Numbered from the stretch's first letter, positions 2-14,239 are shown. The stretch is DNA of 64,000 bases from a virus (IMGVR_UViG_3300025934_000015:56839-120838), one strand, 5' to 3'. Notes: generated by a model from the letters alone, not told the origin. A program made the numbers and translations.

Positions 2-841
2 GATTACGACCTCTGTCAGGTGACGGTCGCCGGGACCAACATGTTTTGTACCGAGTCCTTGCGTGAGGCTAAGGTCGGGACGAAGGAGTATAAGGAAGGC
101 GTCCCCCGGATCGAGATGCCACAGTTGGCCGGTCTGCCCGAACCCGGATCCGAAGCCGACAACCTGCCGAAAAATGCCAAGGGTGAAGTGGACGCCAGCG
201 CGCACTTTATCCACTTCCTCCAAGGCATCGGCATGAAGACGACCCACGAAGAAGTGCCTGCGGAAAAACTCCGCGCGTCACAGCGCGAGTTAGTGGGCCA
301 GAACGTGGGCGGCATGATGCGGAACAAGGACTTCGATCCCGCCAAGGATCCGATCTTCATCTCCAGTGATAACTACGTGGTGGACGGCCACCACCGCTGG
401 GCCGCAACCGTCGGGCGTGACGCGGAAGATGGCCACCTCGGGGACTCCACGATGAAGGTCCGCCGCATCAACGCGCCGATCTCTGAAGTGCTGCATCTGG
501 CGAATGAGTATTCGAAGCGCTTCGGCATTAAACAGAAGGGTGTTGGCGCAGGCGCGCGGCACGCGGGTGGTTCTGGCTCAGGGAACTTCGGTCATAGCGG
601 ACGCCCTGGAGAAGTGGGCGGATCGGCCAATAAGGACTTCGAGTCCTACATGACTGCCAATCCCCACAAGAGCACGTTCGAGATTGGCATCGAAATTCCG
701 CTCGAACGCAAGGGCAAGCCACAGATGGCGAAGTTAGTCCGCAAGGAACATCACGGCGAGGAGTGGCGCATTCATAACGAACGAGGCCAATACGTCTATT
801 CCGAAGGCTTCCGCTACGTGACTGAGCATCGCAAGAAATGA
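2..841 (+). CDS. Head-region polyprotein 1 (5'-truncated): ParB/Srx-like module, tag peptide, small unknown module
   Basis: Frame is open from base 2 (DYDLCQVTV...). ParB-like PIFISSDNYVVDGHHRWAA; tag peptide at 566-625; stop overlaps the next ATG (ATGA). Confidence 0.85.
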   Translation, partial: DYDLCQVTVAGTNMFCTESLREAKVGTKEYKEGVPRIEMPQLAGLPEPGSEADNLPKNAKGEVDASAHFIHFLQGIGMKTTHEEVPAEKLRASQRELVGQNVGGMMRNKDFDPAKDPIFISSDNYVVDGHHRWAATVGRDAEDGHLGDSTMKVRRINAPISEVLHLANEYSKRFGIKQKGVGAGARHAGGSGSGNFGHSGRPGEVGGSANKDFESYMTANPHKSTFEIGIEIPLERKGKPQMAKLVRKEHHGEEWRIHNERGQYVYSEGFRYVTEHRKK

Positions 842-3800
842 TTCAACTGCCACTGTCCCCAGACGTCGGCGCGCGGGTGCTTACCCAGGCACTCCTGCGG
901 CTTCGTCTGCTCGGCGGTCCCGGCAGTGGTAACTTCGGGCACAGTGGACGCCCGGGCGAAGTGGGCGGCTCCAGTGGTGAGCGACAACCCCAGGGCGATG
1001 AGGAAGACAACGATCTCAAGGCGCGTACCTTCTTCCATGGCACGCACTCGCTGAGTGTGCAGGACATTCTCCAACAGGGACTGTTAGTCGGCCATGCGGG
1101 GAAGATGTGGCCGAGTTTCTCCTCGCGCGAACATACATACATCACGACCGACCACGACAACGCGGAACACTGGGCCGAGTCGGCGGTGCAGAAAATGAAG
1201 ATTGATCACCGGGATGCGGAGATCTATCCGGTGATTTTGACTGTGCGCGTGCCGCCCGAGTACGCGCGACGTGTGGTGCAGGATTCCCACTTCCCTGAGC
1301 CCGGATCCCCGGCGCGGCAATTCAAAGGCAACATCCACCCCTCGTGGATCATCGGCGCGAAGATGGGTGCGTGGGACGATGATGCGGACGGCATTGTATG
1401 GAAGGACGTATCGCGGTCGTCCCCGATGCCACGCGCCGCGGCGGACGCCGACACGATTATCCACATTGTCCTGTTGCTGACGTCGAAGAAGTTGCGGACA
1501 GCCGGTGGTCCTGGCTCGGGCAACTTCGGCCACAGTGGACGCCCAGGACAGGTGGGCGGTTCTAGTAGCGCATTGACGGATAGCACAACGCATCCGGCCG
1601 ACATGTCCTTCGAGCAGTTCCAAAAGCCTGTGCCGTTGCCTCCCGTTCCGGAGGGCCATATTCGGCTGTCGCATGTGACGTCCGCCGAGAATGTGCCGAA
1701 CATTCTGCGCGAAGGGTTAAAGCAGTCCAAGTCGAAGGGGGCGTCCTACGGCGAGCCGAGTGTAGTCTGGGCCACGACGCATGGTGAGACGTGGGGCGGC
1801 GCACTGGACGCCAACGCCCGCGAAATCATTTTTGACATGCCGACGAAGGACGTCAGCAGTGCGGGCACACTGCATCGCATGGCGGATGTGCCGCCAGAGG
1901 CGATTGTCTCGGTGGAGCGCGCGGGATTTAGCGATGTGTCCACCGGCGCGTTGACCCTCCGGCAGGAACGGAAACACGAGGATCTGAACACGCGACGCCA
2001 GTACTGGGAAGCCTACCAGCGCGAGAAGCCCAAGTCGCCCCTGCCGTTCCGTCCGCCCGGCGTCTACGACGAGAAGGGGCGGTTGATTGCGCCGGTACAG
2101 TCGCAGCCGCACGCGCGGCCGTCCGGCCCGTGGGACATGAACCGTGCCGCCGGAGGTCCTGGCTCGGGAAACTTCGGCCACAGCGGACGTCCCGGACAAG
2201 TCGGCGGATCGACGTCTGGCGACGATGCGCGTATTGATAACCTCGAATCCTTCGACAAAATTCAGGTAGGCGACTACACGGTCCGTCGGGACATGTATGG
2301 CATGTGGGTCGTGTACAACGACCACAGTCACGCCGCGTTTGAGGATGCGCAGGGTGCCAAGCTGTACCTGCGGTCCAAACAGACGGCCGTGAACGCCGAC
2401 CCGCATACGCTCGACGTGCCCGTGTCCATCTACCACAATTCGCCAGACCAGTTTGCGGAAAATAAACCCACGTTTGGTGCGTACTTCGGGGATGAGCATT
2501 TCCTTAAGGCGTTTCCGAATGAATGGGGCGAGCACACGTATAAGGTCACACTGCCGAAGGGCAGTAAGGTGTTAGACCTGGGTAAGGATACGCCTGAGGC
2601 CCGGGAGTTTATGGCGACCGTGGCCGGGATTGCGTATCCGAAGGATCCTGGCATTGCGGACTGGCAAGCGCGACTTCGACAGGGCGATCCTGCGGCCAGT
2701 AGCTACGATGAATTCTACGAAGCGTGGACAGATAAGAAAAACATCCTCGGTGCGTTGAAACAGCACAAGGGCTACGATGCGGTCCGCTATCAGTCAGAGT
2801 ACGTGTTGCCACCAGAGACCCTGAAGAAACTCAAGGGCACGAAACTGAAGACGGCGGAAGTGTTCAGGACGCTCGGTGGATCGGGGTCCGGTAATTTCGG
2901 CCACGCGGGACGGCCGGGTGAAGTTGGGGGATCGGTAACAGAGGGTGGACCTAACGGGGAATCGGAGCCATTACACGCGGGCCCGCGTATTGGATTTGTA
3001 ACCCCGACAGGTCAAGAACGTGTCGCTAGTAAAACCAGTGGCGGTATTGGTGGTTACGGTGAAGACCATACGGATCTTGCACGACGGTTGATGGACGATG
3101 AGAACGGCGGCGTACAACCGGCATTGAAACAGGGGTACTTACGCTATTGGGTGCGTAATGGCGAGATTGCACTCAACTTTAAGTCTGGTCAACCAAATAC
3201 CGCATCTAACGCTCTTCGATTCATCAAGGAAAACGTTCAGGACGGCGATCGCATTTACCTCGACATTGAACATCCCCATGGCGATAACGTTACGCTTGGA
3301 GGATTCTTCGACAACCCTCGTGAAGCCAATCAGGCGATCCGTCGTGCAGGTGGACTGAAAACACTTGGGGGCCCTGGCTCCGGTAACTTCGGCCACACCG
3401 GACGGCCCGGCGAAGTCGGCGGCTCCTCGGGTGGTGAACTGGGTCCGCGTCCAACGCCCATCAAGGTGTCGAAGGTCAAGGACGCCATCCCGCTCATCCT
3501 CCAGGGCAAAGTCGTCGAGCTGCCGAACGTCCGCAAGGTCAATGTGCTGATGCAGCGATTGGCCAAGATCGCGAAGGACGCCAAGCGACAGGGTAAGGAC
3601 GCGCCCTCGTATGATGCGTGTCAGATCGTGGTGCCGGGGTCCAATATCTTCTGTGGTCAGCACCTTGTGACCAAGGAATACCCTAACGGCATGCCCCGCA
3701 TTGTCATGCCGCAGTTTGCTAGTGAACCGATTCCTGGAACGCCTGCCGATAAACTGCCGCGCGATGCGAAGGGAGTGGTCGATGCGGGTCCGGAATTTAT

Positions 3801-6800
3801 TGATCATCTGGCATCACGCGGTATCACGAGTACACGTGTGGACGTCCCCTCGGCGTCCCTGCGGCCCAGTCAGGCGCAACTCGACGGTCCCAAAATCGCC
3901 AAGCGCATGGTCCAGAAGGACTACCGGCCCAGTAGTCCGATCTTTATCTCACGTGACGGTTACATCGTGGATGGCCACCACCGTTGGGCAGCCGTGGTCG
4001 GCCGCGACGCCGAAGACGGACACTTAGGCGACTCCACGATCCGCGCCTACAAGATTGACGCGCCGATCAGCGAGATCCTGAACATTGCGAAGACCTGGAC
4101 TAAGACCTTTGGGCTCGAACAGAAGGGGATTGGGCGCGCGGCTGGTGGACCCGGGAGCGGGAATTTCGGCCATAGCGGACGGCCGGGTGAAGTCGGTGGA
4201 TCGTCCAGTGAGGGCGGATCAGCCGTCACGAAAAGTACGCCGTTCAAACGATGGTTCAAACAATCCAAAGTCGTCGACGCGGAAGGCAAACCGCTGGTCG
4301 TCTACCACGGTACGACGCATGACTTCGACACGTTTGAACCGGCGGGCTCGGATAAGTACAACATCGAATCCGACTTCGGCGCAGCCGCCTATTTCTCCAA
4401 CTCCGCGTCGGATGTATCCGAAAACTACGCAGGTGTAGGGCCGGATCTCACGAGCCGTCTGGAACAGCGTGCCGACCAACTGACGAGCGAGAACGACGAG
4501 CTGGATCATGAGGCCGCACTGAAGCAGGCGCGCGAGGAGTTAGTGGGCCGGAGCGGCGCGCTGGGCGTGCCCGTCTATCTGTCGATGCAAAACCCCTTTG
4601 TGCTGGGGGACGCGTACGACGAGGATCATCCGGTCAAGGAAACCTACCTCACGCACGAGTATGTCTACGACGATCCCAATGACCCCGATTCTGACATCGT
4701 GGGTGAGGAAGGCACGCTCGTCGACTTTATCACCGCGTTGAAGGATGAGGCTGGGCAGTTCCACGATACCGAAGGCGTTGATGACTTCCTGACGAAGTTA
4801 GCGGATAACAGCTTTGATGGCATGCACGCCAGTGAACTCGACAAACTGTGGCGCACCACGGAAACGACTGCCTATGTGACCGACGATCAGGGGCGGCTGG
4901 CAGGCAACGAACTCTATCGACGTGCGCTGGAGCGCGCAGGGTTCGATGGCGTGATTGACCGCTCGGTCGATACGAAGTTTGGCTCGGCACGGCGCATTGG
5001 TAAGCAGATGATCGGTGTGACTGCCGATACCGAACATTACATCGTCTTCAAACCCCAGCAGATTAAGTCCGCTATCGGGAATCGGAAGTTTAACCCGAAG
5101 AGTCCCGTGATCACGCTCGGTGGTCCGGGCTCCGGCAACTTCGGTCACGCCGGACGGCCCGGTGAAGTCGGGGGCTCTGGCGTAGGCGACAGTACCGCGC
5201 ACTTACCGGAATCGGTCGCGTATGTCCTGCGGGCGCGCGAACAGAAATTAAAGGAACTTGACTACGAAGCCGCCGCTATTCTCTCACCTACGGGCGAGGT
5301 GGTGAATTATATCTCCAGTTACGCGAAGGACTACATCACGATCGATGAAAAGTTGAAGCCAAGTTTGGCCGATACCATCTTTACCCACAATCATCCGGGC
5401 AGTAACGGTCTGAGTCTGGCGGACGGCGACGTGGCGGTTAACCTGAATATCCGCGAGATACGAGCGATTGGCGCGGATGGGCGTGTGCATAGTCTGCGAC
5501 GCGAGGGCGACCGTTGGCCGGACAATTTTATGGCCCTGGTGCGTGTGGCGGACTATGAAACGCAAAAGACCTTTTCTGAGGAGATCCGCGCCGGACACAT
5601 GACGATGCAGGAGGCCAATGCGAAGCACTACGATCATGTGTACGCAACGGCTGTAGCAAAAATCCCTGGTGTCGCGTTCGTGATGGCTCCCAGTCTGCCG
5701 GTGGTCTCGGAGGTCCATGTCTGAGATCATTTTGATTGACGATCGTGAGTTCCGGATCCCGGTCTACACCGAGGAGAGTGTCCGCACACTCGGCGGTCCC
5801 GGCTCGGGCAACTTCGGCCACAGCGGACGCCCTGGCGAGGTGGGGGGCTCCGCGCCCGAGGACGGACCGGCCATCGGTGGCAGCATCCGCGCGCAAAAAG
5901 AGGAAGGCGTGCGCCGCGTCGAAGCGCTCCTCGACAAGGCGGTCAAGTCGGCGGACTTTACGGTCGCGGGTGACGAGAGTTATACCGAAGACGATTTGAC
6001 CTGGAGTGATTTCTCCAGTACGCAGCAGGATCGCGCATTTGAAAATTTCCGTGACCAGTCCTATAACGAAGGCGTGGAGGTTGATGATAGCGAGATCATC
6101 AGTGACCTCTACAAGGACTTATACCGCGATAACGAGAAGGTCGTCGAGGAGGCTTCACAGAAGTTAATCGACGACATCAATAATCCGGAGTCCACGGTTC
6201 AGGCGTTTCAGCAGACGACCGAACTGCCGTTTACCACGGAGAGTGGCGAGCCCGCGCCGGTGGTGCAGCGGTTCTATCTCGATCCCGACACGATCGAAGC
6301 GGAAGAAGATACGGGCGATGGCGCGCCCCTCAATGAGGACGCCCTGCGTCTGACCAATGGTGAGGAGCTGACGCCCCAACAAAAAGAAGCCGTGGACATG
6401 CTCTGGTCCCATCACTACGAAGCGGAGATGGACAAGGCCAAGGAGCGGGTGACCGAGAGTGACGAATACTCCGAGCGCCGCAATGAGTTAGAGTCTGAGG
6501 AGATCGATAGTCAGTGGAATAACATGTCCGACTCGAAGAAGATCGACTATCTCGATCAAAACGACAAGGACGCTGCACTCGAAGAGAAGGCTGGTACCGG
6601 AACTGAAACCTTAGACAACTCCGAACCCGATAACTGGATTGTCGATACGGAAGTCGAGGAATCCACCGGCCGCGCCACGGATGAGAGCAAGCGGGAGGAC
6701 TACGACAAGACCCGCATTCTCGCGCGGAAGCTGGCCGAACTGCGCACATCGGAGATCCTAACTGAACGCGGGTTAAGTACGACGGGCGCGGCGGACATTC

Positions 6801-8746
6801 CCCGCAGTGTGTGGGAGGCGTGGAAAGGATCGTCGACGAGCGACTTAGGATTGGCATTGCAGTTAGCCGCCGCGGAAGAACTCGGTGGACACCATCGGCT
6901 GAATGAGCGGGAAGTGAGTCACGCACGACAAATCGCGGATCAGCAATTTGGTATTCAGGTGCCGTTTGCAGATTTACCCAAGGCAACACAAGATCAGGCG
7001 CATGAACGCTACGTACGTGAATTTGCGGACTACGAGGTGCAGAGTTTCAAAACGCAAAACGATAACGCAAAAGTGCCCTACACCGAAGCCGATGTCCAAG
7101 CCTACCGTCAGAAGGCGGAGGATCGGTGGGAAAAAGGGTGGGAGTCACTGTCTGGATATGGTAAGACGCAGTACGCGAAGGAAAAAGGTCTGGACCAGAA
7201 TCAGTCCGGCATGGAGCGCCTGAAAGCCTACACCCGCGCGCAGTGGGAGACTACGCAATTCCTGATGGAGAAGGCCGAAAAGCCCTACGCGGAAGTCTAT
7301 CGCGGTATCATTCTCCCCAAGGACGATCTCGACAAGACCACCAATCTGACGGTCCCGCATCCTGATCGACCGACATTCGCGACCGACGCCGATCGTGAGA
7401 AGTACGAAAAGTATTACAAGCAGAATCTGCCGGACTATGTGCAGCTCCCGGATATCGAGATCAAACGCAATGGTGCATCATCCACGTCATCGAATGCTGA
7501 CGTGTCGAATAATTGGGGCGGCGCGGGTGGGTGGAAGGAACAGCCTCGGGGATCACAGCGCGTGGTCCTGCGCTTCCAGGCTCCGGCCACCTCGCTGATT
7601 TCGATTCCGGTGTTTGGCCAGAACCTGCACAACGAATCCGAGTACGTGCTGATCGGCACGAAGGACAAATGGAACTGGGACGCGTGGCGCGGCAAGGCCC
7701 CCACGTTCGAGCAGCATCCGATTGGCGGACGAAAGGTGTCTGGCGTGAAAGCGGCGGAAGAAAAGAAAATGCTCGTCATCGACATGGCCGAGCACGACAA
7801 GGGCCCGCACTGGTTGACCGAGTACCGGGACCAGCGCGCGAAACCCCGCTATGCCAAACGTCGGCCCGAGACGGCTGTCCACGCCGCGGCCGATGCGCAT
7901 GTCGAAGTGATGCGGTCCGCGGCGGTCAAGGCCTTCAAGGCTGGACGCGCGGCGTTGAACGTGCCGCTCTTGCGGTCGGCACTGACCTCAGGCAATCGGA
8001 CCAGGGCAGTCAAGGCCGTGGCTGCTGTCCCTGGTGCGATCCGCGCGAGCCTCCTGAAATCGTTGCCGGGTCTGCTGTTGAAGATGGCCGCGAAGGGCGG
8101 ACAGGCGAGCCTCAACACCTTGCGCGTGCGTACGCGCACGATCCGGCATGCCGAACGACGCGCCGCGCGTGCGGCCGGTCTCGCAGAACCCCGCTACGCC
8201 GCCATCGAGTTTGACTGGGGCTTCGATGACAGTAATCCGCGCGCCCAGAAGTGGGCCCGTGAGCACGCCGCGGAGTTGGCTAAGGGCATTTCCGACACCA
8301 CGCGGGACGATATTGCGGATGCCCTGGTCGCCGCGTTCGACGAAGGCGGCGATACCAATACGTTGATTGAATCCATTAGTGAAGCTGTAGGCGACGAGGA
8401 TCGAGGCGAGTTGATTGCCGTGACGGAACCGATGATCGCTGTGCACGAAGGTCAACGCGAGGCATGGCGACAGGCAGTTGACGAAGGGGGACTGCCCCCG
8501 GACGCCCAGCGCGAATGGATCACGACCGGCGACATGAAGGTCTGTCCTGAGTGTGAGTCGTTAGAGGGCACGACCGCTGACGTGGACGGGCTCTATCCGG
8601 ATCCTGGCGGCGAAGGCCCACCACTTCACCCTCGGTGCCGCTGCACGGAAGGTATTGCGGCCCCGCGTGCGCGCGGGCGCGGACTCGGCGGTCCCGGCAG
8701 TGGCAACTTCGGTCACGGCGGACGCCCTGGACAGATTGGTGGGTCA
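566..8746 (+). repeat. Ten dispersed copies of a 60-nt coding repeat for GG[PS]GSGNFGHxGRPG[EQ][VI]GGS
   Basis: Copies start at 566, 913, 1504, 2152, 2875, 3367, 4144, 5119, 5792 and 8687. Peptide nearly invariant, third codon positions differ. Confidence 0.97.
838..5724 (+). CDS. Polyvalent polyprotein 2 (1628 aa): seven tagged modules, namely four ART-like, one unknown, one ParB-like and one JAB/MPN-like
   Basis: FFHGT..ILQQGL; SHVT..NILREGL; YHNS..GAYF..GYDAV..EYV; VDGHHRWAA; FKRWF..SKVVD..PLVVYHGT..GFDGVI..FKPQQIKSA; FTHNHPGS..S..D. Confidence 0.88.
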   Translation: MIQLPLSPDVGARVLTQALLRLRLLGGPGSGNFGHSGRPGEVGGSSGERQPQGDEEDNDLKARTFFHGTHSLSVQDILQQGLLVGHAGKMWPSFSSREHTYITTDHDNAEHWAESAVQKMKIDHRDAEIYPVILTVRVPPEYARRVVQDSHFPEPGSPARQFKGNIHPSWIIGAKMGAWDDDADGIVWKDVSRSSPMPRAAADADTIIHIVLLLTSKKLRTAGGPGSGNFGHSGRPGQVGGSSSALTDSTTHPADMSFEQFQKPVPLPPVPEGHIRLSHVTSAENVPNILREGLKQSKSKGASYGEPSVVWATTHGETWGGALDANAREIIFDMPTKDVSSAGTLHRMADVPPEAIVSVERAGFSDVSTGALTLRQERKHEDLNTRRQYWEAYQREKPKSPLPFRPPGVYDEKGRLIAPVQSQPHARPSGPWDMNRAAGGPGSGNFGHSGRPGQVGGSTSGDDARIDNLESFDKIQVGDYTVRRDMYGMWVVYNDHSHAAFEDAQGAKLYLRSKQTAVNADPHTLDVPVSIYHNSPDQFAENKPTFGAYFGDEHFLKAFPNEWGEHTYKVTLPKGSKVLDLGKDTPEAREFMATVAGIAYPKDPGIADWQARLRQGDPAASSYDEFYEAWTDKKNILGALKQHKGYDAVRYQSEYVLPPETLKKLKGTKLKTAEVFRTLGGSGSGNFGHAGRPGEVGGSVTEGGPNGESEPLHAGPRIGFVTPTGQERVASKTSGGIGGYGEDHTDLARRLMDDENGGVQPALKQGYLRYWVRNGEIALNFKSGQPNTASNALRFIKENVQDGDRIYLDIEHPHGDNVTLGGFFDNPREANQAIRRAGGLKTLGGPGSGNFGHTGRPGEVGGSSGGELGPRPTPIKVSKVKDAIPLILQGKVVELPNVRKVNVLMQRLAKIAKDAKRQGKDAPSYDACQIVVPGSNIFCGQHLVTKEYPNGMPRIVMPQFASEPIPGTPADKLPRDAKGVVDAGPEFIDHLASRGITSTRVDVPSASLRPSQAQLDGPKIAKRMVQKDYRPSSPIFISRDGYIVDGHHRWAAVVGRDAEDGHLGDSTIRAYKIDAPISEILNIAKTWTKTFGLEQKGIGRAAGGPGSGNFGHSGRPGEVGGSSSEGGSAVTKSTPFKRWFKQSKVVDAEGKPLVVYHGTTHDFDTFEPAGSDKYNIESDFGAAAYFSNSASDVSENYAGVGPDLTSRLEQRADQLTSENDELDHEAALKQAREELVGRSGALGVPVYLSMQNPFVLGDAYDEDHPVKETYLTHEYVYDDPNDPDSDIVGEEGTLVDFITALKDEAGQFHDTEGVDDFLTKLADNSFDGMHASELDKLWRTTETTAYVTDDQGRLAGNELYRRALERAGFDGVIDRSVDTKFGSARRIGKQMIGVTADTEHYIVFKPQQIKSAIGNRKFNPKSPVITLGGPGSGNFGHAGRPGEVGGSGVGDSTAHLPESVAYVLRAREQKLKELDYEAAAILSPTGEVVNYISSYAKDYITIDEKLKPSLADTIFTHNHPGSNGLSLADGDVAVNLNIREIRAIGADGRVHSLRREGDRWPDNFMALVRVADYETQKTFSEEIRAGHMTMQEANAKHYDHVYATAVAKIPGVAFVMAPSLPVVSEVHV

Positions 8747-9190
8747 TCTAGCGATGATGAAGGGGATGACGAAACGCCCGCCACGACCATTAGTGGGAAA
8801 GACCTTAAGGAAAACATGACCGGCGATCTGGCAGCCGTGGCCCAAAAGGTCTACGACGAGTGGCAGGTCGATCCGAATCAGCCGGAGAACGATGACCTCT
8901 GTGGTGGTGGGATTTGTCATCTGATTGCCGATGAAATGGTTGGCCATCTGTCAGACAAAGGCATCGAGGCAACCACCGTCAGCTCGCAGATTGGGGAACA
9001 GCATGTCTGGGTCGTCGCGAAGTTAGCAGATGGTGTGTACTCCATCGACATCCCGCCCGGCACGTACGAAACGGGCGGCGGTTATTCGTGGCAGAAAATT
9101 CCTGACGTGACGATCGATAAGCGGGACGTCGTGGTGGATCTCGTCTCTCCGAATCCCGAGAAGTTCACCGAGTTCACCGACGAGGGTTAA
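5717..9190 (+). CDS. MuF (SPP1 gp7/Mu F) minor head polyprotein with an R-S-E-type ART module and a C-terminal Cys-His-Asp module
   Basis: MuF motif REWITTGDMKVCPEC...PPLHPRCRC; VYRG..STSS..ESEYVL; GGICHLIA..HVW..IDI; tags at 5792 and 8687. Confidence 0.88.
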   Translation: MSEIILIDDREFRIPVYTEESVRTLGGPGSGNFGHSGRPGEVGGSAPEDGPAIGGSIRAQKEEGVRRVEALLDKAVKSADFTVAGDESYTEDDLTWSDFSSTQQDRAFENFRDQSYNEGVEVDDSEIISDLYKDLYRDNEKVVEEASQKLIDDINNPESTVQAFQQTTELPFTTESGEPAPVVQRFYLDPDTIEAEEDTGDGAPLNEDALRLTNGEELTPQQKEAVDMLWSHHYEAEMDKAKERVTESDEYSERRNELESEEIDSQWNNMSDSKKIDYLDQNDKDAALEEKAGTGTETLDNSEPDNWIVDTEVEESTGRATDESKREDYDKTRILARKLAELRTSEILTERGLSTTGAADIPRSVWEAWKGSSTSDLGLALQLAAAEELGGHHRLNEREVSHARQIADQQFGIQVPFADLPKATQDQAHERYVREFADYEVQSFKTQNDNAKVPYTEADVQAYRQKAEDRWEKGWESLSGYGKTQYAKEKGLDQNQSGMERLKAYTRAQWETTQFLMEKAEKPYAEVYRGIILPKDDLDKTTNLTVPHPDRPTFATDADREKYEKYYKQNLPDYVQLPDIEIKRNGASSTSSNADVSNNWGGAGGWKEQPRGSQRVVLRFQAPATSLISIPVFGQNLHNESEYVLIGTKDKWNWDAWRGKAPTFEQHPIGGRKVSGVKAAEEKKMLVIDMAEHDKGPHWLTEYRDQRAKPRYAKRRPETAVHAAADAHVEVMRSAAVKAFKAGRAALNVPLLRSALTSGNRTRAVKAVAAVPGAIRASLLKSLPGLLLKMAAKGGQASLNTLRVRTRTIRHAERRAARAAGLAEPRYAAIEFDWGFDDSNPRAQKWAREHAAELAKGISDTTRDDIADALVAAFDEGGDTNTLIESISEAVGDEDRGELIAVTEPMIAVHEGQREAWRQAVDEGGLPPDAQREWITTGDMKVCPECESLEGTTADVDGLYPDPGGEGPPLHPRCRCTEGIAAPRARGRGLGGPGSGNFGHGGRPGQIGGSSSDDEGDDETPATTISGKDLKENMTGDLAAVAQKVYDEWQVDPNQPENDDLCGGGICHLIADEMVGHLSDKGIEATTVSSQIGEQHVWVVAKLADGVYSIDIPPGTYETGGGYSWQKIPDVTIDKRDVVVDLVSPNPEKFTEFTDEG

Positions 9191-9343
9191 ATGGACATTA
9201 CCATCAACGGCCAACACGGTATCGTCACGTACTGGGATAGTAAGTGGCATCTGGCCGATCAGCCACAGGCGGTCATGGCCCAAGTACGGTTCGACGATGG
9301 CCGTGTGGTGTTGTATCACGTGAACGCGCTTCCACACAAGTGA
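9191..9343 (+). CDS. Small hypothetical protein (50 aa) directly after the MuF gene
   Basis: ATG abuts the MuF stop and its TGA overlaps the next ATG; MDITINGQHGIVTYWDSKW... Confidence 0.65.
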   Translation: MDITINGQHGIVTYWDSKWHLADQPQAVMAQVRFDDGRVVLYHVNALPHK

Positions 9344-9597
9344 TGCACGTGGAACAGTGGTTTGCGGACCCGACAAAAGTTGGAGTCACCGTCTTATTGT
9401 TGATGGCGGTCGTAGCCTATTCACGCGAGTGGGTCGTCTCCGGCGTGACCTACACGAAGCAGATCGCGGAGAAGGATAAACAAATTGCTGCCCTAACAGC
9501 CGAACGTGATGAATTCAAACAGATGGTCATCACAAGTCTTAATATAACTGAGCGGACGCAGCGAGTCCGGGGTGGCGCATTACTCCCGAAGCAATAA
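9343..9597 (+). CDS. Small membrane protein with coiled coil
   Basis: Hydrophobic VGVTVLLLMAVVAY followed by a heptad-rich region; TGATG coupling. Confidence 0.7.
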   Translation: MHVEQWFADPTKVGVTVLLLMAVVAYSREWVVSGVTYTKQIAEKDKQIAALTAERDEFKQMVITSLNITERTQRVRGGALLPKQ

Positions 9598-9598
9598 C

Positions 9599-9805
9599 AT
9601 GAACGAATGGATCCGGACCCTGCGAACCTGGCTCCACAAGGGACAGCCTATGCCAGATACTCCGACCCGATCGGACCCGGACAAGGAAGACTTGGCGCGA
9701 CGCATTCAAGATGCGCAGTCGCGTTTACACCGATTGGAATGGGAGGCGGATGTCATGCGCCGGCGACAGATACCGCCCGATCAGAAAGAAAACGAACAAT
9801 GTTAG
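9599..9805 (+). CDS. Hypothetical protein
   Basis: Tightly packed ORF MNEWIRTLR... Confidence 0.6.
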   Translation: MNEWIRTLRTWLHKGQPMPDTPTRSDPDKEDLARRIQDAQSRLHRLEWEADVMRRRQIPPDQKENEQC

Positions 9806-10371
9806 ATCGAATTTTCGCTCATGCGACACCAGTGGAAGGGATCTTTACGGTCGTGTCGATCGCATCGGCGGCGGTGTCGTGGTACGCACTTCGGAACGCG
9901 ATGATTGATGCAGCCGTGCAGACGGCCGCAAAGATCAATGGCCCTCGTCGATTGGTGGCAGAGAATAACATTCATCAGGAGCAACTGCGATTGGCGGTCT
10001 CGGTCGTCATGGTGTTGGCATCGATTTCGTTCTTATTTCTCGAGCCACCGCCGCCGCAGTATTGGCTCCTGCCGCAGTCCCTGGTGGGACTGATTGCGTG
10101 GATTCTGGTCGCGACCATTATCATGCTGTCCTCCTTAGTCGATAAGTCGATTCGCCATAAGCTGCAAAAGTACGCGCCTATTGAAGTGACCACGAAGTCA
10201 GTCACGGTTCCGCCTCCGCTCAATGAGTTTGGCGAGCCGGGATCCCCCAAGGATCTCATGGACGTGTCGATGGCCATCCGTGCGGATTCGGCGCGTGCCG
10301 TCGAGGGTCGCCGGTCCGATGATTCCGTCGGACGACGCGCCACGGATAAACCCGCTATCGAGGAGAAATAA
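9799..10371 (+). CDS. Multi-pass membrane protein
   Basis: Three hydrophobic segments; C-terminal GRRSDD/GRRATD. Confidence 0.7.
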   Translation: MLDRIFAHATPVEGIFTVVSIASAAVSWYALRNAMIDAAVQTAAKINGPRRLVAENNIHQEQLRLAVSVVMVLASISFLFLEPPPPQYWLLPQSLVGLIAWILVATIIMLSSLVDKSIRHKLQKYAPIEVTTKSVTVPPPLNEFGEPGSPKDLMDVSMAIRADSARAVEGRRSDDSVGRRATDKPAIEEK

Positions 10372-10372
10372 C

Positions 10373-10525
10373 ATGGGATTACTTGAAGTGTTGATCCTTG
10401 TGATCTTCCTGCTATGGCTGGCAGGCTTTGGATTCGGCGTGGCCGGATCCTTGATCCACGTCCTGCTGATCCTTCTAATCATTCTCGTCATTGTGCGATT
10501 ACTTCAAGGACGGAACGTACTATGA
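10373..10525 (+). CDS. lmo0937/DUF5670-like small membrane protein
   Basis: MGLLEVLILVIFLLWLAGFGFGVAGSLIHVLLILLIILVIVRLLQGR fits the LWL.G....G..IH.LL...QGR pattern; RBS GAGGAG. Confidence 0.75.
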   Translation: MGLLEVLILVIFLLWLAGFGFGVAGSLIHVLLILLIILVIVRLLQGRNVL

Positions 10526-12741
10526 TCAAAAAAGAGGGCGAGAAGTGGATCCTCTATACCAAAGACGGATCCAAGAAACTCGGCACGCACGATTCCGAAG
10601 GCGACGCGAAGAAACAAGAAGCCGCCATCGAAGCCAGTAAGCATCGTGCGGCAGCGGACGCTGAGCACTTTCGCGCGTTGGTGGCGAATCTCGATGTGAC
10701 CACCCTGGCGCGGAAGCCGAACAAGGACGAACACCCCTTCACGTACTGCATGCAGGTCGTGGTTCCGGCCATCGAAGAGAAACAGGGCGCGATGGACAAT
10801 CCGGAGGCGTTCTGTGGCTGGTGGAAGGGCGAGCACGCATACGAAGCCGCGCAGGCCAAGACCCTGGAGGGTAAGGAGTCTCGCACGGTCCATCTGATGG
10901 GCGCGACCGGTCAGATTCGCACGGCGACGTTTGAAAACAAGGATTACATGGTGGTCCCGGTCGTGGCCCTCATGGAGGGCGTGATTCACGCCATCAACGC
11001 CGAAACGCCGGAGTACGTGCCGCTGGCGTGTCTCGCGTGCGCGCCGCAGGGATGGGACGGTCGCCCGGTGGTCCTTGGCCATCCCGTGAGAGACGGTCAT
11101 CAGATTTCCGCCAATTCACCAGAAGTCCTCGAATCGCAGTCCTTTGGTCGAATCTTCGGTGCGCGCCTCGACGGCAAGAAGTTGATGCTGGAGGCGTGGA
11201 TCGATCCGGTCAAGGCGGAGCGCATCGGCGCGCAGGAGATTGTCACCAAGCTGCGCGAAAACAAGATGTGCGAAGTGTCCGTCGGAGCCTTCGTGGTGAC
11301 GGACAAAACCGCAGGCATGTATGGCGACAAGCCCTACAAAGCAGTCTGGCGGGACATCGTGCCGGACCACTTGGCCTTTCTCCCCAAGGGCATTGGTGCG
11401 TGCAGCAACGAAATGGGCTGCGGATCCCCGCGGACGGCCATGGCCCATCTGATTACCGCCGAGGGCTTCGAGACCTTGGCGTTTCCCTTCCAGAAAAAGG
11501 AGGACACCGCGGACACCGATTGGGCCGCGAAAGCCGATGCCGCTGAAGCGGCCGCGACGAAAGCGGAGAAGGCGGGAGATACCACCGAAGCGGCTAAGCA
11601 ACAGAAGTTGGCCAAGGAGTATCGAACGAAGGCCAAGGCCATGAAGGCTGCACAGTACGGCGATACGCCAAATGAAGCAGCCTCCGAGGAGAAGGCGGAG
11701 CTGATTGCCTACCAGACCATGCGCACGCTGTGCGACCAGATTGGCGAGTCGTACGATGCCATTTCCGAAATCGTCGACGAGCTGATTGCCGACGAAGCCG
11801 ACAACCCAACGCAGACTCCCGCCGAGGAGGCTGCGGAAACCGAAGTGGAGACCGCTCGGCTGGAGTCGCTACAAGTGCTGTGCATGTCCCAGTACAGCAC
11901 GCTCAACGCCCTCATGAGTCTCACCACGGATTGTCTGCGGCCGGAACCGGCACCAGACGTGGCTCCGCGGTACATGGCGGGAGCACGCCACTCCGCCACC
12001 GATCGACAAATCATCCAGCGCGTTCACGACCACGCGGTGTCGTTGGGCGCAGAGTGTAGCGGCATGGAGGCCCGAGCCGCTGAAACACCGCGTGCCGATT
12101 CATCCACGCAACAGCCGGTCCCCGTACCGGCGGAGGTACGAGACATGGCTTGCACATGCGGAAAAACCACAAAAGGAGAGGCGATGAACAAGGAGCAGCG
12201 TACGGAACTCATCAAGACGCTATGCGCCGACAAGCATAGTGGGTTCACCGAAGCCGATTCCAAGATGTTGGAAGCGGCTCCCGACGAACGACTCGAATCC
12301 TTCCGTGTCGCTGCTGCGGCGCGGGCCAAGGAGGTCGAGGAGAAGACCAAGCCCGCGACCGAACCGGCACCGAAAGTCGCGGAATCGAAGCCCCTCACCG
12401 AGGACGACTTCATGAAGGTCGCCCCGGATTCGCTCAAGTCGCTCATCGCCCGCGCGCAGGCGCAGGATGCCGCCCACAAGACCACGCTCGTCGCGGACCT
12501 CAAGACCGCGCAGAGCGAGTACTCGGAATCGGAACTCGCGGCTATGTCCATCGACGCCCTGGAGCGTCTGAGCCGCGCGATCGGCCGTCAGGTCGAGCAG
12601 CCGACGTCGTACGCCGGGCGTGGTGTGCCGCGCGCCGCTGCCGCGCCGGAGAAGGACGTGTACACGAATCCGCCGAACCCCTACGAAGAGGGGCTGAAGA
12701 AGCTGCGCGCCTCCAGCGGGTTCGCGGAACAGACCGCGTAA
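10522..12741 (+). CDS. Prohead maturation protease (DUF2213-like) fused to a scaffold
   Basis: GRPVVLGHP, EVSVG, IVPDHLAFLPKGIGACS..GCG; acidic, Ala-rich helical C-terminus; lies before the decoration and capsid genes. Confidence 0.8.
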   Translation: MIKKEGEKWILYTKDGSKKLGTHDSEGDAKKQEAAIEASKHRAAADAEHFRALVANLDVTTLARKPNKDEHPFTYCMQVVVPAIEEKQGAMDNPEAFCGWWKGEHAYEAAQAKTLEGKESRTVHLMGATGQIRTATFENKDYMVVPVVALMEGVIHAINAETPEYVPLACLACAPQGWDGRPVVLGHPVRDGHQISANSPEVLESQSFGRIFGARLDGKKLMLEAWIDPVKAERIGAQEIVTKLRENKMCEVSVGAFVVTDKTAGMYGDKPYKAVWRDIVPDHLAFLPKGIGACSNEMGCGSPRTAMAHLITAEGFETLAFPFQKKEDTADTDWAAKADAAEAAATKAEKAGDTTEAAKQQKLAKEYRTKAKAMKAAQYGDTPNEAASEEKAELIAYQTMRTLCDQIGESYDAISEIVDELIADEADNPTQTPAEEAAETEVETARLESLQVLCMSQYSTLNALMSLTTDCLRPEPAPDVAPRYMAGARHSATDRQIIQRVHDHAVSLGAECSGMEARAAETPRADSSTQQPVPVPAEVRDMACTCGKTTKGEAMNKEQRTELIKTLCADKHSGFTEADSKMLEAAPDERLESFRVAAAARAKEVEEKTKPATEPAPKVAESKPLTEDDFMKVAPDSLKSLIARAQAQDAAHKTTLVADLKTAQSEYSESELAAMSIDALERLSRAIGRQVEQPTSYAGRGVPRAAAAPEKDVYTNPPNPYEEGLKKLRASSGFAEQTA

Positions 12742-12784
12742 GTTCACACGAAGTCGTCAACATCTCACGAGAGGACACTGACAC

Positions 12785-13222
12785 ATGGCTATTGTGAAGT
12801 ATCCGCCCAACACCATCTGGCTCGGTGGCGGCATGACGGTCGTCAACGACGTCGCCGCGGGCGCGGCGTTCAATCCGGGCCATCTCATCGAGCGCTACAA
12901 CTCGTCGGGCACGCCGCTGTTCCGCAAGCACTCCACCGCAGGCGGCGCGGCAGCGGCGATCTTCGGCCTGAACCAGTCCATGCTGAACAAAGGCGTGGAT
13001 GACGCGTACGCAATCGGTGACCTCGTCGAAGCGGGCATCATGGCCAAGGGCGCGCTGGTCTGGGCGCTCATCGGCGTGCTGACGGTCGTGCAGGGCGACA
13101 AGCTGGAGTCAGCGGGCAATGGCACGCTGCGTCTGCTGGCCGCGGGTATTGCCATCGCCATCGCGGCGGAAGGCAAGGTTGGCGCCTCGGGTGAAACCCG
13201 CGTGCGCGTCGAGATCCTCTAA
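12785..13222 (+). CDS. Head decoration / capsid-stabilising protein
   Basis: 145 aa, Gly/Ala-rich, GDKLESAGNGTLR; sits between protease and capsid; RBS GAGGA. Confidence 0.7.
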   Translation: MAIVKYPPNTIWLGGGMTVVNDVAAGAAFNPGHLIERYNSSGTPLFRKHSTAGGAAAAIFGLNQSMLNKGVDDAYAIGDLVEAGIMAKGALVWALIGVLTVVQGDKLESAGNGTLRLLAAGIAIAIAAEGKVGASGETRVRVEIL

Positions 13223-13252
13223 CCTCTCACGCTGCGAAAGGACACATACGTT

Positions 13253-14239
13253 ATGAGGTTTCAAGTCAACGATCACGATCATCCGCTCCAGACCGCGCTC
13301 CTGCGGGCAGCGGAACAGACAGGCGAGCTGTCCATCGCATCGCTTCGGTCACTGTCACCGCTTTCCGATAAGGCCCAGGTACTCGTCGACCGTGCGGTCG
13401 TCAGCGTGGGCCTTCAGCGCCTCGTCGTCGCGGCCGACGTCATGGCGGCAGGCCTGACCTATCCGCTCACCGATCCGTTGTCGGTGACACAGCTCGAATG
13501 GGAATCCATCTCGAAGACCGGCGGGGCACAGCGCACCATGAACCCGTCGGCGCGTGGTGAATTCCAATTGCCCAACCGTTCGATCAATCGGCTGCCGATT
13601 TATCTGACGACCGACGACTTCAGCCTTGGCATTCGCACGCTGAAGATGTCGCAGCGCGTCGGTCAGCCGCTCGACACGACCCTGGTGGAACAGGCGACGC
13701 GCCGCGTCAACGAGGCCATCGAGGACGCGATGATCAACGGCTCGGGTCTTGTCGTGGGTGGCTACGGTGCGCCTGGCATCTTGAACGCGCCGAATGCGAA
13801 CACGTACGACATCACGGTGAACTGGAACGCGGGCGCGACCGGCGACCAGATCCGAGTGGATACTATGGCGATGATCAGCCTGTTGCAGGCCGATCTGAAG
13901 TTCGGCCCGTACAACTTGTACGTCGGCACGGCGTATGGCAACGCGCTTACGGCCGACTTCAAGGCCAATGGCGATAAGTCCATCATTGCCCGCCTGCAGG
14001 AAATTCAGGCCGGTGGTCGTGGTCTTCAGATCAAGGTGGCGGACCAGATGCCGACGACGACGGTCGCGCTGATCCAGATGACCAGCGACACGATCGAAAT
14101 GGTCGTGGGTCAGCCGCCCACGGTCATTCCATGGACCAGCCTTGACGGGTTCACCCTCTTCTGGTTGGTCATGGCCATCATGGTCCAGCGCGTGCGCTCG
14201 GATTACGACGGCAACTCCGGCATCGTTATCGCCACGTAA
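13253..14239 (+). CDS. Major capsid protein (HK97 fold, encapsulin/linocin-like type)
   Basis: 328 aa with strong codon bias; LPI..DFSL..R, PLDTT, G.LNAPN, FGPY.LY; position in the head module. Confidence 0.85.
   Translation: MRFQVNDHDHPLQTALLRAAEQTGELSIASLRSLSPLSDKAQVLVDRAVVSVGLQRLVVAADVMAAGLTYPLTDPLSVTQLEWESISKTGGAQRTMNPSARGEFQLPNRSINRLPIYLTTDDFSLGIRTLKMSQRVGQPLDTTLVEQATRRVNEAIEDAMINGSGLVVGGYGAPGILNAPNANTYDITVNWNAGATGDQIRVDTMAMISLLQADLKFGPYNLYVGTAYGNALTADFKANGDKSIIARLQEIQAGGRGLQIKVADQMPTTTVALIQMTSDTIEMVVGQPPTVIPWTSLDGFTLFWLVMAIMVQRVRSDYDGNSGIVIAT

Follow-up and report, generated by a model that had tools for sequence, protein, structure and literature searches.

Tag junctions in the head module

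We analysed a 64,000-nucleotide stretch of DNA (IMGVR_UViG_3300025934_000015:56839-120838, below called the window) that makes up the right-hand 64 kb of the 120,838-bp contig of an uncultured phage, and within it a 20-residue peptide, the tag, which recurs in the phage's cargo proteins and is preceded at most copies by a short [R/K]-x-[A/L] motif. The first 14 kb of the window are a head module whose genes, like all the features located below, lie on the plus strand, in the following order: a cargo open reading frame (ORF) that enters from upstream and ends at 841, polyprotein 1 (838-5724, 1628 amino acids (aa)), polyprotein 2 (5717-9190, 1157 aa), two small ORFs, a protease-scaffold fusion gene with a DUF2213 match (10414..12741), a 145-aa ORF, and the gene for the major capsid protein (13253..14239; DUF6260, encapsulin-like HK97 fold). 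The likely true start of the protease-scaffold protein is M37, at 10522, and the 145-aa ORF is the sole small ORF in the 512 bases between that gene and the capsid gene. Pfam finds an ART-PolyVal domain in polyprotein 1 (PF18760, E 2.3e-18) and the Phage_Mu_F domain (the MuF core) in polyprotein 2 (PF04233, E 6.2e-9); several unrelated effector domains are combined per protein, and these two are among the hallmark domains of polyvalent proteins. No peptidase family, zincin-type families included, was detected in the two polyproteins by Pfam at E 0.01, a search that a divergent domain could escape.

The tags were located by a six-frame scan of the window, and the whole genome was scanned as well. 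In this phage the tag reads GG[P/S]GSGNFGHxGRPG[E/Q][V/I]GGS, and exactly ten copies are present in the window, each of which forms a junction with the triplet directly before it, as follows: Junction 1 (557..625) lies in the cargo ORF that enters from upstream and consists of RHA (557-565) and the tag (566-625). Polyprotein 1 begins with a 25-aa leader that ends in RLL (904-912) and leads into the tag of junction 2 (904..972), and it then has RTA (1495-1503) before the tag at junction 3 (1495..1563), RAA (2143-2151) at junction 4 (2143..2211), RTL (2866-2874) at junction 5 (2866..2934), KTL (3358-3366) at junction 6 (3358..3426), RAA (4135-4143) at junction 7 (4135..4203), which precedes the ART-PolyVal module, and ITL (5110-5118) at junction 8 (5110..5178), the only junction in the window without R or K at position -3. 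Polyprotein 2 also begins with a 25-aa leader, this one ending in RTL (5783-5791) before the tag of junction 9 (5783..5851), and its junction 10 (8678..8746), with RGL (8678-8686), stands directly behind the MuF core, at the position where the MuF protein stops in several relatives.

The whole-genome scan found two further tags just upstream of the window, preceded by RTA and ETL, so that the genome has 12 junctions, with A or L at -1 in 12 of 12 and R or K at -3 in 10 of 12. Because [RK]x[AL] turns up at about 2.4 of every 100 positions in these proteins, ten matches at 12 junctions are far above chance (we estimate a binomial probability of about 1e-14). For the ten window triplets the initial annotation had counted nine with R/K at -3 and ten with A/L at -1, and the six-frame scan gives the same numbers. 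The codons of the triplet and of the tag vary freely between copies, and therefore the conservation is at the protein level and does not reflect recent duplication of the DNA. As judged from these sequences and those of relatives, A/L at -1 is strict and R/K at -3 a preference, seen at about 55-75% of the junctions in relatives.

Tags that stand at the very start of a protein still have a leader of 7-25 residues that ends in the motif (e.g., MSTMKTL↓GG, where the arrow marks the presumed cut); such leaders are found in P0089, P0012 and other relatives that carry the protease as well as in the window (838-912 and 5717-5791). The peptides ahead of each protein's first tag are not alike. The presence of leaders ahead of N-terminal tags suggests the importance of a free N-terminal Gly-Gly that is produced by a cut instead of by translation.

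The residue before the tag and the resident protease

How widely does the tag occur, and what precedes it in other phages? The tag core, searched for in IMG/VR as a degenerate DNA pattern, matched at least 114 stretches, and its general form GGxGSGNFGHxGRPGxxGGS is widespread among viral contigs. The statistics on the preceding residue (P1, with P3 two positions before it) cover 204 tags on 108 IMG/VR contigs, among the matches listed: the residue before GG is K in 67, D in 44, A or L in 37, N in 29 and E in 11, with a few others. Tag pairs from the same contig share the P1 class in 211 of 217 cases (97%), while 20% of the pairs from different contigs do so; P3 is R or K in 27 of the 37 A/L tags and I, L, A, V or F in all 11 E tags of this set. 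Identical tag cores occur across P1 classes. No cultured tag-bearing phage was identified in the searches made: tblastn with a 35-aa tag peptide gave no match among cultured phages (low-complexity masking is the probable cause), and a full-text literature search covering open-access papers returned nothing relevant for the tag strings, and likewise nothing for DUF2213.

But does the residue before the tag follow the protease that each phage carries? Three protease families were searched for in 44 tag-bearing records with a length of 30 kb or more, and PF14550 and PF00574 in a subset of 20 of them (five families in all). Canonical DUF2213 proteins, with E values of 1e-32 to 1e-55, were found in 16 of 17 class D records, and all six A/L records that are kin to the window phage (RAA, RTA, KTL, RVL, RTL and EIL before the tag) have a weak, partial DUF2213 match like that of the window protein. 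In class K, Peptidase_S78 or S78_2 was found in 6 of 10 records and DUF2213 or S77 in none, and among the 44 records S78 and S78_2 are confined to this class; the Peptidase_S78 of HK97, gp4, cuts gp5 after Lys103. The single class E record has the sole match to Peptidase_S77 (the T4 gp21 family), and its six tags are preceded by LFFE, EILE, AILE, GLFE, SLFE and SLFE, all of the form [L/I/F]-x-E. Because Glu precedes the cut of T4-type proteases and T4 Alt is cleaved at ITE and LTE (PMC5694885), this class mirrors an experimentally known rule. PF00574 (ClpP) matched one record only, which is otherwise without a prohead protease family. Co-variation of the pre-tag residues among related phages, by which the initial annotation had thought its proposal could be judged, is therefore present: the residue tracks the prohead protease family across the 44 records, and the class of the candidate cut site at the junction follows the rule of the resident prohead protease, as in T4 cargo, also where the cargo is homologous.

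This last point comes from an all-against-all comparison of the modules behind the tags, which gave 46 pairs of homologous modules with differing P1 classes. The clearest case is a module (...WKxPGGxxHxGxTWKQxTxPxTGRPIPIKV...) that stands behind EEK and the tag in a record with an S78 protease (L123/L097) and that has 62% identity, over 253 aa, to the module of the window phage behind ETL, 50% identity to its module behind KTL (3367 onward, junction 6), and 59-60% identity to modules that follow KTL and RFL in the kin of the window phage. Since homologous cargo and identical tag cores occur with differing P1 residues, the triplet is hard to explain as an inherited part of the tag, and these comparisons support the view that the junction residue goes with the resident protease and not with the cargo.

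The two modules of the window phage in this comparison are ParB-like paralogs, located from genome position 56531 onward (298 bases before the window) and at 3367-4134 of the window. Both are homologous to a module of the S78-protease phage L123, and each has 27-29% identity to segments of virion proteins from cultured Pseudomonas, Salmonella and Klebsiella phages. For the KTL module, tblastn against cultured phages gave only these 27-29% matches, to ParB-like parts of virion proteins.

Two further groups of records differ from those above in the residue before the tag. Five records (G008, G019, G031, G038 and G040; loci L011/L105, L027, L058, L088 and L100), with CheckV completeness of 63-100% and four of them at 99-100%, have Asn ahead of every tag, and none of the five searched protease families matched in them. 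Of all peptide bonds, Asn-Gly is the one that most readily undergoes succinimide-type self-cleavage, as in the autoproteolysis of nodavirus and reovirus capsids, and these junctions might be self-cutting or might be served by another kind of protease. In three records (G021, G033 and G037; loci L031/L079, L068 and L087/L091), of which G037 is 122 kb long and 100% complete, the tag follows Leu without a basic P3 (YLL, IDL, FLL, VNL and VHL), and they have no DUF2213, S78, S77, S78_2 or ClpP match.

The protease-scaffold protein and sites that lack a tag

The protease domain of the fusion protein (10867..11439, aa 152-342) matches PF09979 (DUF2213) with an E value of 1.9e-5 and 25.1 bits against a cut-off of 22, and the match spans profile positions 60-156 of 167 only. 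Relatives score 28-38 bits and the canonical members of class D phages 108-182 bits, and by these scores the window protease is best described as a divergent branch of DUF2213. With aa 152-350 as query, 6357 cluster representatives were retrieved at E <=0.001 from a library of 1.8 billion. An AlphaFold model built with 74 aligned sequences has a pLDDT of 90.2 and is ordered up to domain residue A191 (A342 of the protein). The top 24 Foldseek hits of this model are all T4 gp21 or herpesvirus proteases, although none passes E 0.001 (the best is 1.9e-3), and VIA-align gives Z 11.8 to T4 gp21 (5jbl_B; 139 aligned residues, rmsd 3.3) and Z 7-8.6 to the herpesvirus proteases (assemblins). The modelled domain has the T4 gp21/herpes assemblin fold. 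A sequence-profile search of solved structures returned spurious helical matches only, with neither gp21 nor an assemblin among them, and the relation is therefore one at the level of the fold only.

Four residues in three places are invariant in the 74 sequences, H223 (11080-11082), S289 (11278-11280) and D318-H319 (11365-11370), and they are our candidates for the catalytic residues. Their spacing of 66 and 29-30 is similar to that in phage SPN3US gp245, where the catalytic residues are H77, S153 and D178 (PMC5694885). Between the candidate catalytic Asp-His and the end of the domain is a G-A-C-S-x-x-M-G-C-G segment with two invariant cysteines (11398-11424, aa 329-337) that is present in nearly all of 150 relatives; it could be a disulfide or a metal site that fixes the C-terminal strand near the active site.

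The protease domain and the helical region rich in Ala, Glu and Lys that follows it, up to aa 775, are one polypeptide, and the border between the two carries an RTA (aa 340-342, 11431..11439) at the very end of the confident model, which we call the release-like site. In 141 of 145 family representatives the GACSxxMGCG segment is followed within six residues by R-x-[A/L]; in these 141 cases P3 is R throughout, P1 is mostly A (139, with L in the other 2), and P2 and P1' are variable. One relative (L116) has a tag immediately after its boundary R-A-A, and in another (L120) a tag stands 17 residues past the boundary; in all, 13 of 150 proteins of the protease family carry tags, with A or L at -1 of 16 of these 17 tags. 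All 14 canonical DUF2213 proteins compared from class D phages carry a conserved Asp where the domain ends (IKD↓S, LNID↓G). With R-x-A in the one branch and Asp in the other, the boundary of the protease itself thus varies in step with the cargo junction.

Near the other end of the scaffold an RAA (aa 740-742, 12631..12639), the maturation-like site, lies 33 residues from the C-terminus, before an NPPxPY box. R-x-[A/L] is found within 28 aa before the conserved C-terminal PPxPY box in 71 of 79 relatives, as against 34% of shuffled sequences. The layout is thus of the herpesvirus type, with a protease-scaffold fusion just before the capsid gene and conserved sites with a small P1 residue both at the protease border and near the C-terminus.

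In the capsid protein the candidate propeptide cut is RSL↓SPL (aa 32-34, 13346..13354). R-[S/A/T]-[L/A] followed by [S/A]-P occupies the place of R32-S-L34 in 14 of 15 relatives that are 31-91% identical to the window capsid; the protein is variable upstream of this point, where three relatives have an insertion of 18-20 aa, and well conserved downstream of it, and the site therefore looks like a propeptide border. An RAA (aa 18-20, 13304..13312), part of L-L-R-A-A at aa 16-20, is a secondary candidate that is kept in 8 of 15 relatives, and one subgroup of relatives instead has FR[LI]L two residues off.

The MuF core of polyprotein 2 is also flanked by candidates. An RYA (aa 711-713, 7847..7855) lies ahead of the VHAAAD segment in the MuF pro-region, and all seven relatives compared have [RK]-x-[AL] 0-8 residues from the VHAAAD anchor (the alignment was judged by eye). 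Directly before the core is a cluster of four overlapping candidates, RHA, RAA, RAA and RYA (aa 810-828, 8144..8200), where 8 of 9 relatives by count have an aligned R-x-[AL] (RTA, RTL, RAA and RAL, with RWL in L115); this number refers to the aligned triplet R815-A-A817.

The N-terminus of the protease-scaffold protein carries a Lys-rich mini-domain of 41 aa (10522-10644, beginning MIKKEGEKWILYTKDGSKKLG...), which shares 50% identity with part of a hypothetical protein from Escherichia phage C1/S192 and occurs in 2 of 12 relatives. At its end is an RAA (aa 78-80, 10645..10653), with RSA and REL at this place in the two relatives that have the domain.

The initial annotation had listed sites of this kind around the MuF core (VKAA, PRYA twice and IRHA, which lies within the cluster before the core), in the protease-scaffold protein (HRAA, FRAL, AKTL, PRTA, MKAA, ARAA, LKTA and PRAA) and in the capsid protein (LRAA and the RSL at 13346-13354). 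All of them are present, yet FRAL, AKTL, MKAA and ARAA are not conserved in relatives, and about half of the listed scaffold sites appear, from the alignments, to be due to chance. The sites without a tag that are kept are the capsid RSL, the protease-end RTA, the scaffold C-terminal RAA, the N-domain RAA and the two MuF-flank sites.

Proposed maturation pathway and its alternatives

We consider it probable that [R/K]-x-[A/L] followed by a cut is the P3-P1 recognition motif of this lineage's prohead protease. We infer from the comparisons above that the cut would fall at the bond after A/L, that it would be made by the protease described here and that it would take place in the prohead. This is the proposal of the initial annotation, that the pre-tag motif is the site of the DUF2213-like prohead protease and that head maturation would also release the effectors; the comparison across phages supports it, with the changes that R/K at -3 is only a preference and that about half of the scaffold sites drop out. 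The pathway would be as follows: a divergent DUF2213 protease of the assemblin/gp21 fold, fused to the scaffold and active inside the prohead, would free itself from the scaffold at R340-T-A342. About 33 residues would be clipped off the scaffold C-terminus at R740-A-A742, about 34 residues would be removed from the capsid N-terminus at R32-S-L34, the MuF pro-region would be trimmed, and the three cargo proteins would be cut ahead of each of the 12 tags, giving about a dozen separate enzyme modules that each begin with GGPGSGNFGH....

Several observations weigh against this proposal. R/K at -3 is missing at two of the 12 junctions here and at about a quarter to half of those in relatives. The bare motif [RK]x[AL], whose enrichment in head proteins the initial annotation had suggested as a check, is not enriched: there are 25 occurrences in the protease-scaffold protein where shuffling predicts 20.8 (z 1.1), and five in the capsid protein where 5.1 are expected, so that enrichment is not usable as evidence. 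In three alignments, control motifs (for example, [DE]x[AL] and [AL]x[RK]) show a similar frequency of conservation, and therefore only the position and the breadth of conservation count for the sites without a tag. The invariant R-x-A at the protease boundary could belong to the protease fold instead of being a cut site. Brevundimonas phage StAshley, the nearest cultured relative (36% identity to the window phage in the capsid protein and 39.5% in the protease), reads R-I-Q at this boundary, and no tag was found in the 23 kb around its head genes, for which two reasons it was rejected as a model for the tag system. Several records with K, L, N or H before the tag matched none of the five protease families searched (PF14550 and PF00574 on the 20-record subset). 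Finally, both the protease family and the P1 class pass down with the lineage, and shared ancestry therefore explains part of their association; the homologous cargo found in different classes lessens this objection without removing it.

Could the motif be a matter of composition in these Ala/Arg-rich proteins, with only the pre-tag sites meaningful and those in the scaffold, the capsid and the MuF flanks due to chance? The shuffled counts, the control motifs and the loss of FRAL, AKTL, MKAA and ARAA in relatives all fit this idea, and it does hold for about half of the listed scaffold sites. It is very improbable as an account of the four border sites, because the protease-end R-x-A persists in 141 of 145 representatives while its neighbours vary, the site near the scaffold C-terminus is found at more than twice the shuffled frequency, the capsid RSL is kept in 14 of 15 relatives with exchange of A and L and of S, A and T, and the border of the MuF core is kept in 8 of 9.

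Two other explanations concern the junctions themselves, and both leave unexplained why the residue ahead of an invariant GG varies with the prohead protease. The triplet adjoins the tag in every copy and could be read as part of the repeat, that is, as the lineage-specific start of a tag of about 23 residues that stays uncut and is a linker or a signal for packaging or binding; the P1 class and the protease family would then be linked by common descent, as both are lineage traits. We think this unlikely, because homologous cargo and identical tag cores are found with different P1 residues that each match the resident protease, class E reproduces the [L/I]-x-E rule known from experiments on T4-type proteases (PMC5694885), tags at the start of a protein still have a short leader that ends in the motif, and the motif is conserved at borders without a tag in protease, scaffold, capsid and MuF proteins. 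Alternatively, the junctions could be cut by another enzyme, of the host or embedded in the cargo and RadC/JAB-like, or could be cut after Gly-Gly in the manner of ubiquitin proteases. Embedded peptidases, namely zincin-like metallopeptidases, have been proposed by Iyer et al. 2017 to process polyvalent proteins (PMC5512222). The last module of polyprotein 1 contains H-N-H-P-G-S-x5-S-L-A-D-G-D (5386-5433). This segment resembles the RadC/JAB metal-binding motif, although Pfam gives no match to it at E 0.01, and the L-R-L-R-L-L-G-G at the first junction of polyprotein 1 recalls the ubiquitin tail. Nevertheless such an enzyme seems quite improbable: the GG stays the same in every class while the preceding residue tracks the prohead protease family, and an enzyme of the host or one specific for Gly-Gly would not require this residue to change; moreover, the conserved sites without a tag have no GG, Pfam detected no zincin-type peptidase in the cargo proteins, and the JAB-like module is one cargo module among many. 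A cut after Gly-Gly by a JAB/ubiquitin-like protease was rejected on the first of these grounds.

A broader interpretation can be put forward tentatively, namely that the junction is a portable cassette of many unrelated phage lineages and consists of the near-universal 20-residue peptide and one to three residues matched to the protease. Were this true, these residues would be retuned to the resident protease (D, K, [L/I]-x-E, [R/K]-x-[A/L] or N, among others), and cargo modules could move between phages with different maturation proteases. The cut would expose the peptide as a free N-terminus, which might have a role in retention, DNA association or ejection; the G-R-P core of the tag recalls an AT-hook, which is speculation on our part. 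Both the set of injected proteins and the specificity of the head protease could then be readable from sequence, also for the large uncharacterised family of 6357 representatives.

The trimming of packaged proteins by head proteases is already known from T4 and from phiKZ-like giant phages. T4 internal proteins IPI-III and Alt have a capsid targeting sequence and are processed by the prohead protease gp21 (PMC5694885, PMC3012670), and as in T4 the cargo enzymes here, an ADP-ribosyltransferase among them, would be loaded into the prohead and trimmed at a short consensus common to capsid and scaffold proteins. Unlike in T4, where the targeting peptide precedes the cut and is removed, the 20-aa peptide here follows the presumed cut and would stay; T4 has one cargo per gene whereas up to eight modules are chained per protein here; and P1 is Ala or Leu with a basic P3 here in place of Glu with Leu or Ile at P3, the protease being of another family. 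Head and ejection proteins are the substrates of the proteases phiKZ gp175 and SPN3US gp245, whose cut sites read [S/A/G]-x-E or A-x-E (PMC10052503, PMC5694885), and the likeness to them would be that many packaged proteins are processed at a three-residue motif, that the protease sheds its own C-terminal part and that propeptides have multiple sites. Their cuts were measured by mass spectrometry, whereas those proposed here are deduced from sequence, and they mostly remove N-terminal propeptides, separate no chained modules and have no shared tag behind them.

Herpesvirus pUL26 is cut at a release site, YLQA↓T, and at a maturation site, VQA↓S, which removes 37 C-terminal capsid-binding residues (PMC4498786). 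The window protein resembles pUL26 in having an N-terminal protease of the same fold class (with the Z scores given above) fused to the scaffold, an Ala P1 where the protease ends, and, about 25-37 residues before the C-terminus, another site whose cleavage would detach the scaffold from the capsid protein. It differs in having no detectable sequence similarity and in its P3, which is basic here and hydrophobic or variable there, and herpesviruses are without cargo polyproteins. The polyvalent proteins of phages and conjugative elements described by Iyer et al. 2017 (PMC5512222) are, like the proteins here, multi-domain, with ART-PolyVal and MuF, encoded beside head genes and predicted to be delivered together with the DNA; a term search of that paper found no mention of a repeated tag between modules or of a junction residue matched to a protease. 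The likeness to HK97 is that the records with K before the tag carry proteases of the S78 type, which fits Lys at P1, although the window phage has another protease branch and another P1. HK97 is not known to have a cargo polyprotein or a tag.

Three things are new in relation to these systems, of which we find the co-variation across lineages the most interesting: a predicted specificity (basic P3, Ala or Leu at P1) for a very large, unstudied branch with the assemblin fold and a herpesvirus-like layout; comparative evidence that one shared tag is paired with a cut residue that matches at least four protease types; and the exchange of cargo modules across protease types. Effectors delivered by the virion of uncultured phages (ADP-ribosyltransferases, nucleases, MuF) could be listed, and the specificity of the protease guessed, from the genome alone. 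The arrangement also suggests a simple rule by which foreign proteins might be loaded into phage heads.

The degenerate tag pattern also matched 29 stretches in bacterial and one archaeal genome bins (loci L150-L178). The prophage-like contigs of Clostridia/Lachnospiraceae among the tag-bearing sequences have D before the tag; class D includes prophage regions of 'Candidatus Desulfosporosinus nitrosoreducens' strain PR and of a Lachnospiraceae isolate (L154 and L170). Metagenome-bin contigs assigned to Terriglobus (L165, with VRAA) and Sulfuricaulis (L177, with VRAL, FKAL and LRAA) have the R/K-x-A/L form found in the window. The junction form on these last two contigs hints at Acidobacteria or Proteobacteria as hosts of the lineage.

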